Shown here: in pieces, positions 2,442 through 64,000 of the stretch
Position numbering within the stretch: position 1 is the first letter of the stretch
How the letters are laid out: each line of letters opens with the position of its first letter
Source: Alphaproteobacteria bacterium
GTDB taxonomy: Bacteria; Pseudomonadota; Alphaproteobacteria; GCA-2731375
NCBI GenBank assembly: GCA_965232515.1
Contig: CBDDPY010000002.1
Location: 6,336,001-6,400,000 of the forward strand
Reading direction: 5' to 3'
Length of the DNA: 64,000 bases
Translations under genes and position numbers: made by a program
Notes under the pieces: model-generated
Told to the model about the DNA's origin: nothing
The model's input: only the letters and a program-made list of their open reading frames with translations
Database searches by the model: none

Positions 2442-5018
2442 CTATTTTGTCTGCATCGTCCAGACGCCGTCCCAGTCGTCGCCCGGCGGGCTTTGCTGAT
2501 AGTGCTGAATGCGCGCCAGATAGAGCTGCGCCAGTTTGTCTTCGGGCAACAGCGTGGCGGCGCGCTCGAACAAGGTTCTGGCGCCCTGCCAATCCCGGCG
2601 TCGGAACGCGGCCATACCGTCGGCCTGGAATTCGAACGCCCGTCGACCGTCATCGCCGACCTGGTCGGCGCGATAACCGAACGCCTCGAAGATTCGGACC
2701 GGCTCGGCTTTGCCTTTCACCCGCAGCATATCGATTTCGCGGAAGTGTCTACGGTCCTTTACGCGGTCAAGCGTGTATTCGCTGACCAGGATCGGCGTGC
2801 CGTAGTATTTGGTCGCGCTTTCGAGACGCGCGGTCAGGTTCACCGCGTCGCCGATCACGGTGTAGTCCATCCGCTTCGGCGAGCCGATGCTGCCGGCAAC
2901 CGCCTCGCCCGTATTGATGCCGATGCCGTGTTCGATCATCAGCTTGCCGGCATCCGCGCGCCGGGCGTTCAGGGCCGCCAGCGCCAGCATCATCTCGTTT
3001 GCCGCGTCGACCGCGTTCTGCTCGTCCGCCTCGCTTTCGAACGGCGCGCCGAACGCCGCCATGATCGCGTCGCCGATATACTTGTCCAGGATGCCGTGCC
3101 GATGGTCGATGATGTCGACCATGTCGGTAAAATACTCGTTCAGCATGGCGACGGTGGCGCGGGGGCCGATCGTCTCCGAGATCGAGGTGAAGCTGCGGAT
3201 GTCGGTGAACAGCAGGGTGATGCGCTGGGCCCGTCCCTCGAGCACGTCGCGATGCCCTTCCAGCACCCGGTCGACGACCTGCTTCGGCATGTAGCGCGCC
3301 ATGGTGCCGCGCACCCGCTTCTCGGCCGACAGGTCCTCAAGGATCAGCATCTGGCCGATGAACTCCTCGTTCACGCTGATCAACGGTACCGCGGCCAGAT
3401 TGACCGAGACCTTGTTGGCGTCGGCGGTCGCGACGTCGACATCGAGCGAATGATCGCTCTCGCCGCTCGCGGAGACACGTTCCAGGATCGGCAGGATCCA
3501 GTCGTTGCCGGGGCCGAACACGGCGGCGGCGTCGCTGCCGACGACATCTTCCTCGGACCAGCCGAGAATGCGCTGGGCGGCCGCATTCACCTTCGCCACC
3601 CGCTGATCGCTGTCGAACGAAATGACGCCGTTGCTCAGGCTCTTGAGGATGCTCTCGTCATAGTTTTTCAGATTCAGAATATCCTCGAACATCTGGGCGT
3701 TCTCGATGGCGATCGCCGCCTGCGCGCACATCGCCCGCAAACGCCGTTCGTCGCGCTCGCCGAATACGTCGCCGTTCTTGTTCAGAACCTGAATGACGCC
3801 GAGGCACTTGTCGGTCTTGTTTATGACCGGCATGCACAGCATGTTGCGGGTCTGAAATCCCGTCTTGCGATCGAAGTCGCGGTTGAAACGCGGATCGGCA
3901 TAAGCGTCGGTCAGATTGATGGTTTCGCGGCCGCTAAACGCGGCGCCCGCCAGACCCGAGTCCGGCGACAGATAAATAATCTCCGAATCGATCCCTTCGG
4001 CGACACGTGACCAAAGCCGGCCCTGCTTCTCGTCAAAGAGAAACAAGGTGCTGCGTTCGGCGTCGAGCAGCTGCGTCGCGCCGTTGGTGATCTGGGTCAG
4101 CAGCTTGTCGAGGTGGAGTTGCTCCGATATGGCGCTGGTAATCTCCAGCAGCTTTGCTTCGCGCCGTTCGCGCTGGACCAAGCCTTGGCCCATGTCGCTC
4201 AAACTGCGGGCCACCAGGCCCAATTCGTCGGGCCGCGAACCGTCGAGGCTGATATCGAATTTGCCGTTGGCCACGTCGGTCAACGCGCTGCGGATCGAGT
4301 CGCAGTCCTCGTGCAACGCCCGGCCGTAGCGCGAAGCGACAATTAGGGCGGTGCCGACAAAGACGACGCCGACGAAGGCCACCTCGATTGCGTCACCTAG
4401 TTGTGCATGACCCTGATAGACCATGCGGAACATCAGCATGACGAGGATAATCGATGGCACCAGCGTGAAGACCGCATAGCTCTCCATCAGTCGTTGCGTA
4501 ATACGTTCGACAGCCCGTACCGCAGCCGATGCACCTGCCGACCGGCGACGGAAGTACCGCTCGAGAGCGATGTACTCCAACTGCGACAGGATGCCGCCGC
4601 CCAACGCCCAATAGCCCGACAGCAGCTTGGCGTGGCTCTCGACCGGGAAGTCGGGGTAGAGCGATATGTGCAGGCCCATGGCCAGCACGCCGGCGACCAG
4701 CCAGGATAGAACCGACAGATACATGCCGTGCCGCGCCACCGACGCCTGTCCCCAGGGCGACGGGAGCAGTCGATAGAGCGCCTCGCGCAGGCCGATCTGC
4801 ACCAGGCAGATCGCGCCCAACCCGGCCAACAGACGGGCCAGCGAAAGGCTGTCGACAAAGGGACAGACCAGTCGCCCATAGAAACTCAGAAACAGCACGG
4901 CGGCGACAGCGATCAGATGCAATTGCCAGCGGGTTTGCCAATCCACGGCGTCGAGGGTTGGGCGGCCACTTGCGGCCGTTGGTCCGGCATTTCCGGTTTC
5001 AGTCGCGATTGACGACAT
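2442..5018 (-). CDS. Membrane-anchored class III adenylate cyclase (TM-HAMP-GAF-PAS-cyclase-TPR-like tail)
   Basis: [19 protein letters not shown] and [17 protein letters not shown] catalytic motifs; GAF motif DAYADPRFN...INK...F...DE; HAMP '[12 protein letters not shown]'. Start taken at ATG 5018 (MSSIATE). Confidence 0.9.
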
Positions 5019-59860: not shown

Positions 59861-60640
59861 ATGGCCGCGACCGGCAACGTCACCCCGATCCCCAAGGGCA
59901 TGACCCCGGAAGAATGGCAGACCCGCTGCGAGCTCGCGGCCTGCTATCGGCTGACCGCGCTCTACGGCTGGACCGACCTCACCGGCACCCATATCTCGGC
60001 CCGGATCCCCGGCACGGACGAGTTCCTGCTCAATCCCTTCGGCATGCTGTTCGACGAGATCACGGCCTCGGCGCTGATCAAGGTCGATCACGAGGGCAAG
60101 CTGCTGAGCGAGAGCGACTTCCCCATCAACCCGGCCGGCTTCACCATTCATTCGGCCGTGCACATGGCGTCTGCCGACATGAACTGCGTGATGCACACCC
60201 ATACGCGCGCCGGCAACGCGGTCGCCATGCTGAAGGAAGGCCTGCTGCCGCTGAACCAGAAGGCCCTGCTGATCCTCGGCTTCGTCGCCTATCACGACTA
60301 CGAGGGCGCGGCGCTGGATCTCGACGAGCGCGAGCGCATCGTCCGCAATCTCGGCGACAACCGGATCCTGTTCCTGCGCAACCACGGCCTGCTGACGGTG
60401 GGCAAAACCATCGGCGAGGCCTTCGTCTGGATGTACCGGGCCGAGACCGCCTGCCAGTTCCAGGTCGACGCGCTGTCCTGCAGTCGCGAGCTCAACGCGC
60501 TCAGCCAGGAAACCATCGACCACGTCATCGCCCAGGGCCGGGAGATCTTCGCCGAAGGCGGCTTCGCCGCCGCCGGCCACGAATGGCCGGCCCTTATCCG
60601 CCAGCTCGAACGCGAAATCGGCACCGACTACCGGACCTGA
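59861..60640 (+). CDS. Class II aldolase/adducin family protein
   Basis: THISAR, NPAGFTIHSAVH, HTHT, LRNHG motifs. Confidence 0.93.
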   Translation: MAATGNVTPIPKGMTPEEWQTRCELAACYRLTALYGWTDLTGTHISARIPGTDEFLLNPFGMLFDEITASALIKVDHEGKLLSESDFPINPAGFTIHSAVHMASADMNCVMHTHTRAGNAVAMLKEGLLPLNQKALLILGFVAYHDYEGAALDLDERERIVRNLGDNRILFLRNHGLLTVGKTIGEAFVWMYRAETACQFQVDALSCSRELNALSQETIDHVIAQGREIFAEGGFAAAGHEWPALIRQLEREIGTDYRT

Positions 60641-60660
60641 CGGCCAGTCGTTGGCCGTTT
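60641..60660 (+). terminator. Small hairpin plus U run after the aldolase gene
   Basis: CGGCCA-GTCGT-TGGCCG-TTT. Confidence 0.4.
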
Positions 60661-60760
60661 GCTGGCTGGGCGCAGGGCACACTGCAGAAGCAAGGGTAGA
60701 AAAAACCTGAGATTGTGCTATTTTAACGAATAACGATCCGATTGCTTGAGGAAGCAAGCG

Positions 60761-60877
60761 TTGAGATTTTGCGGATACTTTACGACGACCTGCGGCCCGG
60801 CCCGATTAACGTCGGTCGGGCGTCGCGCCCCGAGCCTTCCGCGCATCATGCCGGGTGGTTCTGACGACGGGCTTTGA
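60761..60877 (+). CDS. Putative 38-aa leader peptide (uORF) of the RNA-repair operon
   Basis: GAGGA (60748-60752) lies 8 nt before TTG. Open frame MRFCGYFTTTCGPARLTSVGRRAPSLPRIMPGGSDDGL*; in-frame ATG at 60848. Confidence 0.4.
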   Translation: MRFCGYFTTTCGPARLTSVGRRAPSLPRIMPGGSDDGL

Positions 60878-60905
60878 TCCGAACGAGATCGACCGCCGTC
60901 GAAGG

Positions 60906-60939
60906 ACCCTCCCACACAGACGTGCTGGGAGGGTTTTTT
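60906..60939 (+). terminator. Intrinsic terminator immediately upstream of the nucleotidyltransferase (attenuator-like position)
   Basis: ACCCTCCCA/TGGGAGGGT stem with inner CAC/GTG, ending in TTTTTT (60934-60939), ~30 nt before ATG 60968. Confidence 0.85.
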
Positions 60940-60967
60940 GATCGTGGCGTCGTTGATGGAAAAACAG

Positions 60968-61777
60968 ATGGCCAACACGAACGACAGTCAAATTGAGCCT
61001 GATGTGCGTGCGGAGATCGAACGTCGCCTCGCCGAGATCGAGGCGTCAGAGAATGTGCGTGTGCTGTTGGCGGTCGAGTCTGGCAGCAGGGCCTGGGGGT
61101 TTCCGTCGCCGGACAGCGATTACGATGTCCGCTTCGTCTATGCCCGTCCGGTCGATTGGTACCTGTCGATCGACCGCCGCCGCGACGTCATTGAACGGCC
61201 GATCGATGGCGACCTGGATATCAATGGCTGGGATCTCAAGAAGGCGTTGCAGCTTCTGATCAAGCCAAATGCGGTAATGCACGAATGGCTGGAATCGCCG
61301 ATCAAGTATCGAGAGGAGGCGGCTGCCACGGCACGGCTGCGTGCGCTCGCGGACGAAACGCTGCATCGGATACCGGCGACCTATCACTATCTGCATCTGG
61401 GCGAGGGGCAGTGGCGGCGCTTTATCGACGGCCGTGATCGTGTCGCCGTCAAGAAGTACTTCTATGTGCTGCGACCGGCGTTGGCTTTGTGCTGGTTGCG
61501 CCAGAATGATGACGATCGGGTGCCGATGAATATCGCGGAACTGCGGGCCGGCTGTGATTTGCCGGCCGATGTTGATGCCTTCCTCGACGACCTGATCGAA
61601 CGTAAGCGCAGCACCAAGGAGCTCGGGCAAGGACCGCGGATTCCGGCTCTCGACCGATTTGTTACGGCCGCGTTCGCGGCAGCGCGAGAGCGCGCGTACT
61701 CGCCGCGGCGGCCGGTGAAGGGCCTATTCGAGCAGGCAAACCAGTTGTTCCGCGATCTCGTGCTCGATCAAAGGTGA
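60968..61777 (+). CDS. Pol-beta superfamily nucleotidyltransferase, RlaP/YcgL (Nuc-transf) family
   Basis: ESGSRAWGFPSPDSDYDVRFVY, DINGWDLKKAL, EWLESPI.Y, KKYFYVLRP motifs. Confidence 0.88.
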   Translation: MANTNDSQIEPDVRAEIERRLAEIEASENVRVLLAVESGSRAWGFPSPDSDYDVRFVYARPVDWYLSIDRRRDVIERPIDGDLDINGWDLKKALQLLIKPNAVMHEWLESPIKYREEAAATARLRALADETLHRIPATYHYLHLGEGQWRRFIDGRDRVAVKKYFYVLRPALALCWLRQNDDDRVPMNIAELRAGCDLPADVDAFLDDLIERKRSTKELGQGPRIPALDRFVTAAFAAARERAYSPRRPVKGLFEQANQLFRDLVLDQR

Positions 61778-61788
61778 GGTAGGCTCAA

Positions 61789-63183
61789 GTGCTGCTGACC
61801 ATTTCCACCGATCATCGGCCGGCGACGGATCTCGGCTTCCTGCTGATGAAGCATCCGGATCGTGTGCACGCGCGCGAGCTGGCGTTCGGCACGGCGACGA
61901 TCTTCTATCCCGAAGCGGCGGCCGAGCGCTGCACGGCGGCACTTACGCTGGATATCGATCCCGTCCGTCTCGTGCGTGGCGGCGGCGCGCGGGTGGGAGG
62001 GCTGTTCGACCAATACGTGACCGATCGCCCGTATGCCGTATCGTCATTTCTGTCGGTCGCCATCTCCCGGCTGCTCGGCACGGCGATGGGTGGGCGCAGC
62101 CGGGAGCGGCAGGAGCTGGCCGATACGCCGATACCGCTGACGGCGATGCTGACACCGCTGCCCTGCCGGGGCGGTCCGGAGATCCTGGAACGTCTGTTTA
62201 CACCGCTCGGCTACGAGGTCACAACGCGGCGGCACGCGCTCGATCTGCATCATCCCGATTGGGGCGACAGCGTCTATGTGACCGCGACCCTGTCGGGCCG
62301 TGTCCGGCTGGCCGATCTGCTGACGCACCTCTTCGTGCTGGTGCCGGTGCTCGACAATCAAAAGCACTACTATGTCGGCACGGACGAGGTCGAAAAGCTG
62401 TTGGCGAAAGGGCAGGGCTGGCTCGAACACCACCCAGCCAAGCAGTTGATTGCGCGGCGTTACCTCAAGCACCGGGCCGGCTTGACGCGTGCCGCGCTCG
62501 AGCAGTTGGCCGAACAAGTTGAGCCGCAGACCCCGGAACTCCACGAAGCCCAGGAGGCCGAAGAGGAGGCGTTGGAGGTGCCGATGCGCCTTAACGACCT
62601 TCGCCTGGAGGCGGTGACCGAAGCACTGCTGGCGACGGGCGCCGCGCGCGTGCTCGATCTCGGCTGCGGCGAGGGCAAGCTGTTGCGGCGACTGCTGCGT
62701 GAAAAGCAGTTCGTACGTCTCGTCGGCGTCGATACGGCGCCGAAGGTGCTGGAGCGGGCTGCCCAGCGACTGAAGCTGGAACAGATGCGCCCGCGGCAGC
62801 GCGAACGTATCGAGCTGCTGCAGGGCTCCCTGGTCTATCGTGATGAACGCCTCAATGGCTTCGATGCCGCCGCCGTCATTGAAGTCATCGAGCACATGGA
62901 TGTCGAGCGCCTGCCGGCGTTCGAGCGGGCGCTGTTCGGCGACGCGCGGCCGCAATCCGTCATCGTGACCACGCCGAACCGCGAGTTCAACGCGACGTTC
63001 GAACGCTTGACGTCGGACCGACTGCGCCATCCGGACCATCGTTTCGAATGGACGCGGGCCGAGTTTGCGGCCTGGGCGACGGCGGTGGCCGACCGCTATC
63101 AATACGCCGCCCACTTCGACGGGATCGGAGAGCCGCATCCCGACCATGGCGCGCCGACACAAATGGCGGTCTTCTCGCGATGA
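61789..63183 (+). CDS. hen1: Bacterial Hen1 (3'-terminal RNA 2'-O-methyltransferase and Pnkp ligase activator)
   Basis: MLLTIST...ATDLGFLLMKHP, YVTDRPYAVSS, LDLGCGEG, EVIEH, TPNREFN, RHPDHRFEWTRAEF motifs. Confidence 0.96.
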   Translation: MLLTISTDHRPATDLGFLLMKHPDRVHARELAFGTATIFYPEAAAERCTAALTLDIDPVRLVRGGGARVGGLFDQYVTDRPYAVSSFLSVAISRLLGTAMGGRSRERQELADTPIPLTAMLTPLPCRGGPEILERLFTPLGYEVTTRRHALDLHHPDWGDSVYVTATLSGRVRLADLLTHLFVLVPVLDNQKHYYVGTDEVEKLLAKGQGWLEHHPAKQLIARRYLKHRAGLTRAALEQLAEQVEPQTPELHEAQEAEEEALEVPMRLNDLRLEAVTEALLATGAARVLDLGCGEGKLLRRLLREKQFVRLVGVDTAPKVLERAAQRLKLEQMRPRQRERIELLQGSLVYRDERLNGFDAAAVIEVIEHMDVERLPAFERALFGDARPQSVIVTTPNREFNATFERLTSDRLRHPDHRFEWTRAEFAAWATAVADRYQYAAHFDGIGEPHPDHGAPTQMAVFSR

Positions 63184-64000
63184 CAAGCCACACGATCTCC
63201 ATCCCGGAATACTGCCTGGTGCTGCTGGTCGGGGCGTCAGGATCGGGCAAGTCGACGTTCGCGGCGCGGCATTTCAAGCCGACCGAGATCATTTCCTCGG
63301 ACCGCTGCCGCGCCGTTGTCGCCGATGACGAGTCGGACCAATCGGCCACGGCGGACGCGTTCGAGCTTGTCCATTTCATTGCCGAGAAGCGACTGAACGC
63401 GCGACGGCTGGCGGTCATCGACGCCACGAACGTTCGGCCCGAGGACCGGCGCTCATTCGTCGATCTGGCGAAGCGCTACCACGCGTTGGTCGTGGCCTTC
63501 GTCTTCGATATGCCGGAAGCGCTGTGTCACGAGCGGAACGCCGGACGGCCCGAGCGCGACTTCGGCCGTCACGTCGTCAGCAACCATCTGCGCGCGCTGA
63601 AACGCGGCATCAGGCGCATGGACCGGGAAGGCATTCGCTTCGTCTACCGTTTCTCGGAGCCAGCCCGGGTCGACGAGGCAATCGTCGAACGCCAAAAACT
63701 CTGGGTCGACAAGCGCGATGAAGGCGGGCCGTTCGACATCATCGGCGACGTGCACGGCTGTGCCGATGAGCTCGAGAAGCTTCTGACAAACCTTGGATAT
63801 CGCATTGATATCGAAGGAACATCGTCCGGATCGAAATACTCGGTCATACCGCCGGTAGGGCGCAAAGTCGTCTTTCTCGGCGATCTTGTCGACCGTGGCC
63901 CGCGCGTCCCGGACACCTTGCGGCTGGCGAAGACCATGGTCGATGCGGGCCAGGCGCTCTGCGTCCTCGGCAATCATGAAGCCAAGCTGGTCCGGAAGCT
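63180..64000 (+). CDS. pnkp: Polynucleotide kinase-phosphatase (Pnkp), 5' part, runs off the window
   Basis: Not in ORF track. Hand translation: MTSHTISIPEYCLVLLVGASGSGKSTFA...SSD...IDATN...FDIIGDVHGC...FLGDLVDRGP...GNHE. ATGA overlap with hen1. Confidence 0.95.
   Translation, partial: MTSHTISIPEYCLVLLVGASGSGKSTFAARHFKPTEIISSDRCRAVVADDESDQSATADAFELVHFIAEKRLNARRLAVIDATNVRPEDRRSFVDLAKRYHALVVAFVFDMPEALCHERNAGRPERDFGRHVVSNHLRALKRGIRRMDREGIRFVYRFSEPARVDEAIVERQKLWVDKRDEGGPFDIIGDVHGCADELEKLLTNLGYRIDIEGTSSGSKYSVIPPVGRKVVFLGDLVDRGPRVPDTLRLAKTMVDAGQALCVLGNHEAKLVRK

Follow-up and report, generated by a model that had tools for sequence, protein, structure and literature searches.

The rtcBA RNA-repair operons of E. 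coli and Salmonella are controlled by RtcR, a sigma-54 activator with a CARF domain (PMC7790460, PMC9650030, PMC12606134), and the sections of these reports used here describe induction of the enterobacterial operons through RtcR by damaged tRNAs or tRNA fragments and by ribosome-targeting antibiotics (PMC7790460, PMC12606134). Excerpts from other work describe the Listeria hflXr/lmo0919-type and ABC-F leaders as upstream open reading frame (uORF) attenuators that respond to translation stress or antibiotics (PMC6310831, PMC12421871), and the E. coli toiL uORF as responsive to translation stress and Rho-dependent (PMC12121999). A preprint, in the part of it used here, reports that RlaP adds nucleotides to damaged RNA 3′ ends (10.64898/2025.12.29.696909); the name RlaP is attributed in preprint text to Burroughs and Aravind 2016. 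Here we describe the leader of an operon encoding RlaP, Hen1 and Pnkp in a 64,000-nucleotide (nt) window, by which we mean the whole stretch of DNA analysed, from Alphaproteobacteria bacterium (GCA-2731375; assembly GCA_965232515.1, contig CBDDPY010000002.1, positions 6,336,001-6,400,000, forward strand). To our knowledge, the in-cell trigger of bacterial RNA repair (Pnkp/Hen1, RtcB, RlaP) is known only for the RtcR-controlled enterobacterial rtcBA operons; we know of no described regulation of Pnkp/Hen1, and none was found in a literature search. Nor did the full-text search turn up any account of Pnkp/Hen1, RlaP or RtcB operons being controlled by an attenuator, a leader peptide or a riboswitch; the one paper with the terms, PMC4007540, treats them separately in the portion consulted.

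We put at roughly 0.6 the probability that a leader-peptide (ribosome-dependent) transcription attenuator gates the RlaP-Hen1-Pnkp operon. That the leader regulates the operon in cis, through a terminator and an antiterminator, is very probable; its dependence on the ribosome is suggested by the conservation of the uORF and by the geometry of the leader, and is preferred because the conserved frame and the position of its stop codon are otherwise left unexplained. A terminator ahead of the first gene, an alternative antiterminator and a suitably placed short open reading frame (ORF) are all present, as in known attenuators; no cluster of codons for a cognate amino acid is visible. The leader occupies the interval 60641-60967, with a class II aldolase gene (59861-60640) on one side and the operon on the other, and contains the following features:

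60716..60724, plus strand: putative promoter, an extended -10-like TGcTATTTT present in the sequence
60742..60757, plus strand: 5′ hairpin TTGCTT-GAGG-AAGCAA, which folds with a Shine-Dalgarno-like GAGG in its loop
60761..60877, plus strand: uORF (leader peptide) with a TTG start, 38 codons plus TGA; TTG 60746 is an alternative start in frame
60832..60840, plus strand: segment 1 (GAGCC/TTCC), which in minimum free energy (MFE) folds pairs with segment 2 in a local hairpin, 60832-60861; an anti-antiterminator candidate
60853..60861, plus strand: segment 2, G-rich GGGTGGTTC, in the last third of the uORF; predicted 5′ strand of the antiterminator base
60865..60901, plus strand: "stop hairpin" CGACGG...CCGTCG with an inner TTGATCC/GATCGA stem, from folds; the uORF stop codon (60875-60877) lies near its apex
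60906..60939, plus strand: intrinsic terminator, with 5′ arm 60906-60917 (segment 3), loop 60918-60921, 3′ arm 60922-60933 (segment 4) and T-run 60934-60939

In the mechanism that we propose, a transcript of about 210 nt would begin some 230 nt 5′ of RlaP and carry the 38-codon uORF. Segment 2 would pair with the start of the terminator 5′ arm and its flank (segment 3) to form a long antiterminator, with the stop codon in its upper part. A ribosome on the last dozen codons during synthesis of the terminator would hold segment 2 inside itself, in which case segment 3 would pair with segment 4 and transcription would end 27 nt before the RlaP start; were ribosomes absent, slow or stalled early in the uORF, the antiterminator would form first and polymerase would enter the repair genes. 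A C-rich segment 1 further upstream may capture segment 2 in some of the relatives, following the classical four-segment logic. We hypothesize that the trigger is damage to the translation apparatus, such as cleaved tRNA or rRNA, or translation inhibitors.

The terminator is composed of an 8-bp G+C stem with three further inner pairs and a T6 run, and is predicted to be stable (-19 kcal/mol for the isolated stem, -24 kcal/mol when its flank is included). It was missed by a simple consensus scan of 60000-61500 because its loop is longer than the rule of the scan allows, and it is one-directional, since the hairpin lacks a T-run when read on the minus strand. The GAGG of the 5′ hairpin lies 9 nt 5′ of TTG 60761, and the stop-hairpin arrangement is also seen in folds of other instances of the leader. 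Several of these elements had been picked out by a model working from the letters of the window (the sequence-only reading), and inspection and folding find the -10-like site, the 5′ hairpin, the uORF and the terminator all where it had placed them. Its impression that the AGA, CGA and TTA codons of the uORF are uncommon locally is borne out by six neighboring genes (2038 codons), in which AGA is used for 1 of 165 Arg codons, CGA for 10 of 165 and TTA for 1 of 243 Leu codons; such rare codons make up 9 of 37 codons in the uORF, compared to 5.3% in the neighboring genes. The segment CCTTCC, part of which (CCTTC) it had paired with GAAGG, pairs in our folds with the G-rich segment.

The comparative set was assembled through the protein. 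A blastn-type search of 60 relatives with the window leader gave two short chance-level matches only, and in the absence of a DNA-level relative in these genomes loci were collected by RlaP protein similarity, taking the best 80 from genomes and the best 80 from metagenomes. The same terminator stem (ACCCTCCC, a loop, GGGAGGG and T5-6) is present on the gene strand in five of the 80 genome loci (L004, L005, L006, L013 and L025) and in one of the 80 metagenome loci (L114); each of the six ranks with the nearest relatives by RlaP, and the minus strand has no match. The leader stands at the front of the repair cluster in every case, and the first gene after it is RlaP in the window, L004 and L005, RtcB in L006, L013 and L114, and a 122-residue ORF in L025. 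The terminator motif occurs once in the 7.4-Mb genome of the window. The bare motif was found in 27 of 401 genomes of the class, and a repair gene lies within 1.5 kb in none of 29 control loci from other genomes; linkage to repair genes is thus not a property of the motif itself.

A covariance model, R1, built from the 3′ 136 positions of seven training leaders, scores these at 77-120 bits and 28 control loci with unrelated CCCTCCC terminators at no more than 25 bits, and it finds one copy per genome in all three genomes tested that hold a group-1 leader. A weak second match (27 bits) is present in the genome of L005, at G432:C5:92189-92316 on the minus strand. In the order containing L006, 14 of 127 genomes have one match each, and these directly precede RtcB (12 genomes), RlaP (one) or an RtcB remnant and then RlaP (one). 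At L201:1697-1900 an intact leader is followed by RtcB reduced to two fragments (residues 1-47 and 381-404) and then by RlaP, a case of gene loss with the leader retained. Two leader-headed repair operons contain ORFs without a Pfam match, one of 122 residues between leader and RlaP (L025:2608-2976) and one of 256 residues between RtcB and RlaP (L013:2234-3004), and both are candidate RNA-repair accessory proteins. In total we count 28 leader loci (27 distinct), of which three are truncated 5′ by a contig end and 25 have complete upstream sequence. The stem sequence of the window is common to 19 other leaders of group 1.

Diverged versions were recognized by layout, as a terminator adjoining the first gene in a scan of operon heads, and not by R1. 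The layout recurs with other sequence in Hen1-first operons of Sphingomonadales (L012, L017, L018 and L125), in an RtcB-RlaP operon (L054) and in an RtcB-RlaP-Hen1-Pnkp operon (L119). The reach of R1 is limited, with scores of 19 bits for L119 and 10.7 bits for L211 and no match to group 2 or L054. When 151 genomes of the family that includes L012 were searched for group 2, the one addition was a partial match, L209, which was left out of the count as the terminator pattern gave no match there. The genome of the window itself has a single RtcB gene, elsewhere, and ahead of it stands another leader with this layout, diverged in sequence:

G000:C2:4298105-4298425, minus strand (locus L211, about 2760-3080): second leader, with the same layout, before the only RtcB gene

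This second leader has CTTGAC and TGTATC promoter boxes and a 37-codon uORF whose stop lies 33 nt 5′ of a CCCCTCCC terminator arm, and its terminator is 54 nt ahead of the RtcB ATG. The RtcB gene appears to be monocistronic, with a convergent CoA-ligase-like gene downstream. In a genome of the same genus (L213) the second leader is 83% identical and retains its promoter boxes, uORF and terminator intact; the two copies differ by compensatory changes in conserved 5′ hairpins, with indels only outside the uORF. A 30-nt segment with a 90% match to the second leader is present elsewhere in the genome of the window (L215, G000:C2:3657736-3657765).

An ORF of at least 25 codons ends 25-36 nt 5′ of the terminator arm in all 20 group-1 leaders, and one also ends ahead of the arm in L012 and L018 (at 30 nt), in L054 (at 43 nt) and in L211 (at 33 nt). 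With the conserved start taken as codon 1, the uORFs are 31-46 codons long, mostly 37-39. The sequence-only reading had suggested homologous operons as the place to look for conservation of the uORF, and the ORF, its length and its stop at the antiterminator apex are indeed kept in all 25 complete instances. When each upstream region is shuffled with its dinucleotides preserved, 14-20% of the shuffles have an ORF of at least 31 codons that ends in this zone; multiplied over seven leaders this gives 4e-6, a value that exaggerates the significance, as these leaders are related to one another. It is nevertheless unlikely that a chance ORF was simply inherited, given that the 5′ halves are barely alignable (54% mean column identity). 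Within each of three subgroups the uORF is free of indels (120, 120 and 117 nt), and the stop codon varies between TAG, TAA and TGA at one fixed position.

The second line of evidence is that the end of the uORF can pair with the terminator arm. Antiterminator folds were made for 24 distinct instances over the span from 16 codons before the stop through the terminator 5′ arm. In 22 of them the MFE structure is one long stem-loop, the base of which pairs the G-rich uORF end with the arm, and the stop codon lies in or beside the loop of the upper hairpin. In an alignment of group 1 (A4), 89% of the cells for the seven base pairs are paired, compared to 51-60% in slid controls. Across the leaders the base helix is found in six complementary versions, GGGAGGG:CCCTCCC, GAAGGGTTTCAA:TTGAAACCCTTC, GGGTGAAA:TTTCACCC, GGGCGAAG:TTTCGCCC, GGCAGG:CCTGCC and GGAGGG:CCCTCC, and the two strands change together from lineage to lineage, as between L012 (GGGTGAAA:TTTCACCC) and L017 (GGGCGAAG:TTTCGCCC); in effect this is compensatory change between lineages.

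The effect of a ribosome was simulated in 12 leaders by blocking a 27-nt footprint at successive codons. In transcripts cut after the 5′ arm, pairing of the arm with the uORF is high without a ribosome or with an early one, and a footprint on the last 12 or so codons abolishes it in 10 of the 12; the exceptions are L114, which never pairs, and L054, which is erratic. In L006 and L054 the G-rich segment is held by a partner further upstream until an early ribosome releases it, as in the classical four-segment scheme. The gap of 25-43 nt between stop codon and arm means that a terminating ribosome would open the antiterminator without covering the arm, as the model requires. A purely thermodynamic switch was considered and rejected, as at equilibrium the terminator prevails in all 12 leaders, and control would therefore have to be kinetic and co-transcriptional. 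The terminator is likewise the most stable hairpin of the trp leader, where the choice is kinetic.

The central proposal of the sequence-only reading, that a ribosome translating the uORF melts the antiterminator and that impaired translation leads to read-through, fits these comparative data. In the window, the terminator arm pairs with the uORF end in the whole-leader fold (probability 0.71), and this pairing is weak and absent from the local fold. Footprints on the uORF end removed the antiterminator in the truncated transcripts of 10 of 12 leaders, and left the terminator of the full transcripts dominant at almost every position. The covariation it had looked to homologous operons for is seen between lineages, in the six complementary versions, and not within group 1.

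Several observations weigh against a leader-peptide attenuator. First, in full transcripts the terminator probability is at least 0.9 in all 12 leaders, and high at almost every footprint position. Secondly, the peptide is weakly constrained, with pN/pS (nonsynonymous relative to synonymous change) of 0.49-0.64 in the subgroups and variable sites spread evenly over the three codon positions (12/16/17, 2/2/6 and 11/14/14), and 11 of the 13 codons that differ between the two same-genus second leaders are changed nonsynonymously. Thirdly, a 4-nt Shine-Dalgarno core precedes only 7 of 20 uORFs, and no run of a single codon is visible in the uORF peptides, so that no specific sensor codon can be named. 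Fourthly, the base helix shows no covariation in group 1, because the arm is invariant, and a G-rich segment shuffled by single nucleotides pairs with the arm almost as frequently as the real one (control fraction 0.05-1.0); the evidence for the antiterminator is thus one of conservation, compensation and composition, and not a per-sequence statistic. Fifthly, the copy in the window is not a strong one. Its uORF starts with TTG and its antiterminator competes with the 60832-60861 hairpin; the window and L114 are the two instances in which a local hairpin captures the G-rich segment. The antiterminator of the window is the weakest of the set, using about 4 nt of the arm and reaching 0.71 at best; the arm pairs with the uORF end in the whole-leader fold cut just past the 5′ arm, and the local fold prefers the competing hairpin. 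The extended -10 element claimed by the sequence-only reading is present as letters, and a sigma-70 consensus scan of 60000-61500 reported no promoter, so that the promoter of the window is best called putative; the homologous leaders, examined by eye, have a clear CTTGAC -35 and a ATCATAAC-like -10 at the matching distance, and the window does not. Finally, most of the RlaP/RtcB operons examined lack a leader-type terminator of this kind, and the leader is therefore confined to a minority of RNA-repair operons.

Part of this would also be expected if the antiterminator were the weaker structure and depended on a stabilizing partner, be it a protein, a damaged or uncharged tRNA or a small ligand, with the ORF either incidental or tuning RNA stability. 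We regard such factor-dependent antitermination as unlikely, and it is the best of the alternatives. The thermodynamic dominance of the terminator in all 12 leaders is what is seen where an antiterminator needs such a partner, the barely constrained peptide and the 13 of 20 uORFs without a clear Shine-Dalgarno core agree with an incidental ORF, and the leader is long and structured (fold z = -3.3, better than all 200 shuffles), with the compensatory changes in the 5′ hairpins of the two same-genus leaders noted above. The GGGTGG motif in segment 2 also recalls what we take to be a T-box sequence, though the Rfam T-box model is unmatched. Against a partner of this kind, ORFs of similar length end at the antiterminator apex in all 25 complete instances in spite of 5′ halves that can barely be aligned, and the identity of the stop codon changes while its position does not. 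An Rfam scan of 60000-61500 at E <= 10 gave four chance-level matches, none fitting, and 10 homologous loci had no match at E <= 0.1 to any family, T-box (RF00230), known riboswitches, Y RNA-like and other small RNA families included; ARAGORN found no tRNA-like gene or domain in 60500-61100. A match to a known small RNA or riboswitch, which the sequence-only reading had named as evidence that would count against it, was thus not found. The genes neighboring the loci vary, and no conserved regulator gene is adjacent.

The leader could instead be a stand-alone small RNA of about 210 nt, acting in trans or serving the repair enzymes in the manner of Y RNAs, which accompany Rsr/RtcB, with the operon expressed by leaky read-through or from another promoter. 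The promoter-like elements of the relatives, the strong terminator and the single copy per repair locus would suit this, and the trp attenuator RNA of Sinorhizobium is reportedly an attenuator transcript that also acts in trans. However, the distance from the terminator to the RlaP start is only 15-27 nt in the window, depending on the start codon chosen, and in the relatives the spacer to the first gene is 17-95 nt (17-18 nt in L012 and L025), often too short to accommodate a promoter of its own. A plain small RNA would moreover have no use for the conserved complementarity of the uORF end to the arm, and the Rfam and ARAGORN searches bear on this explanation as they do on the previous one; we think it decidedly improbable. 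That the ORF is simply a gene for a small protein of about 38 residues with its own terminator, merely neighboring repair operons and complementary to the arm by coincidence, is scarcely credible: the ORF is conserved in presence and length, its pN/pS is below 1 and some C-terminal residues recur between subgroups, but the peptides of different subgroups are otherwise nearly unrelated, the residues that recur are encoded where the RNA itself is constrained, in the G-rich segment and the stop hairpin, most codon changes between the same-genus copies are nonsynonymous, and none of the small frames on either strand of the leader region has a Pfam match. The pattern fits a frame that needs to be translated and whose product is irrelevant, and is no proof of translation.

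The genes downstream of the leader are as follows:

60968..61777, plus strand: RlaP nucleotidyltransferase (PF10127, Pfam E = 2e-83), first gene of the operon; ATG 60968, possibly 60956
61789..63183, plus strand: Hen1, with a Hen1_L domain (Pfam PF12623, E = 1.8e-106) and a methyltransferase
63048..63998, plus strand: N-terminal part of Pnkp (kinase AAA_33 and metallophosphatase, from Pfam), in a frame that leaves the window

The adjacent, co-directional genes for RlaP, for Hen1_L plus methyltransferase and for the kinase and phosphatase of Pnkp identify a Pnkp/Hen1 operon with RlaP; the window covers the kinase and phosphatase part of Pnkp, and the ligase domain lies past its end. The operon neighbors are the aldolase and a FAD oxidase. 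The Pnkp frame opens 135 nt ahead of the Hen1 stop (63183), and homologues align to it in tblastn only from about residue 40-50. The true Pnkp start is thus likely to be later than 63048 and near the Hen1 stop, which would suggest translational coupling.

Transcript data are available as contigs from four RNA-library runs of a strain about 96% identical, which carry no information on RNA ends, strand or level. A single contig spans 60300-60842, and another three, from one study, start at 60916 and enter RlaP; 60843-60915 is without contig cover, the absence of which proves nothing. As the first contig spans the upstream gene and part of the leader, read-in transcription is possible. Immediately after the aldolase stop, at 60641-60660, is a weak terminator-like site of the upstream gene, a 6-bp hairpin (CGGCCA..TGGCCG) followed by only TTT, and the contig continues from the aldolase gene to 60842 in spite of it. 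In three of the runs TAA replaces TTG at 60953-60955 and an extra A follows 60959; ATG 60956 is thus out of frame in the related strain, which favors ATG 60968 as the probable start of RlaP.

We also entertain, as a tentative and rather doubtful extension, a direct translation-coupled alarm for RNA damage (ribotoxins, anticodon nucleases, inhibitors) that joins RlaP-Hen1-Pnkp and RtcB in one regulon through paralogous leaders, independently of RtcR and in several alphaproteobacterial orders. A search of this genome (96% complete) for RtcR (PF06956) gave no match, and the E. coli control was matched. A uORF that senses slow or stalled ribosomes would couple repair to RtcR-type stress in the absence of RtcR. 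The conserved uORF attenuator is a hypothesis testable by mutation, in which expression of repair is tied to the performance of translating ribosomes, and the leader offers a handle for finding natural inducers.

The class of mechanism proposed here is an established one, and what is described is a cis-regulatory RNA family of Alphaproteobacteria absent from Rfam, with at least six sequence variants; the set of variants is useful for annotation and for studying the evolution of attenuators. The leader shares with the trp, his, leu, thr, ilv and pheA attenuators of enterobacteria a short leader ORF, mutually exclusive antiterminator and terminator hairpins and an intrinsic terminator before the first gene, and in L006 and L054, as in those systems, segment 2 is taken up by segment 1 in the absence of a ribosome. 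It differs from them in having no codon run for one amino acid, and in a longer uORF (31-46 codons) that runs through segment 2 to the antiterminator apex, whereas theirs stops before segment 2. The predicted ribosome-free state is also mostly the antiterminator here and the terminator there, the regulated genes repair RNA, and there is no sequence or Rfam relationship. T-box leaders are similar in length (about 200 nt), in pairing a terminator with a less stable antiterminator and in a G-rich 5′ strand (GGGTGG-like in the window, L004 and L005), but the leader has no RF00230 match and no specifier-loop or Stem I architecture was identified in it, and its conserved uORF has no counterpart in T-boxes.

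The hflXr, ABC-F and toiL systems, in so far as the excerpts cited describe them, are closer in logic, in that a uORF senses the general state of the ribosome and releases genes that aid the translation apparatus, as is proposed here. The genes they release provide ribosome protection or efflux, in contrast to the RNA end-healing, sealing and modifying enzymes of this alphaproteobacterial host, and toiL acts through Rho where this leader has an intrinsic terminator. Finally, the leader would resemble the control of rtcBA by RtcR, as presented in the sections cited, in tying the expression of RNA repair to damage of the translation machinery, if our hypothesis for its trigger is right; there the link is a protein activator at a sigma-54 promoter, whereas here it would be an RNA switch acting in cis after initiation.

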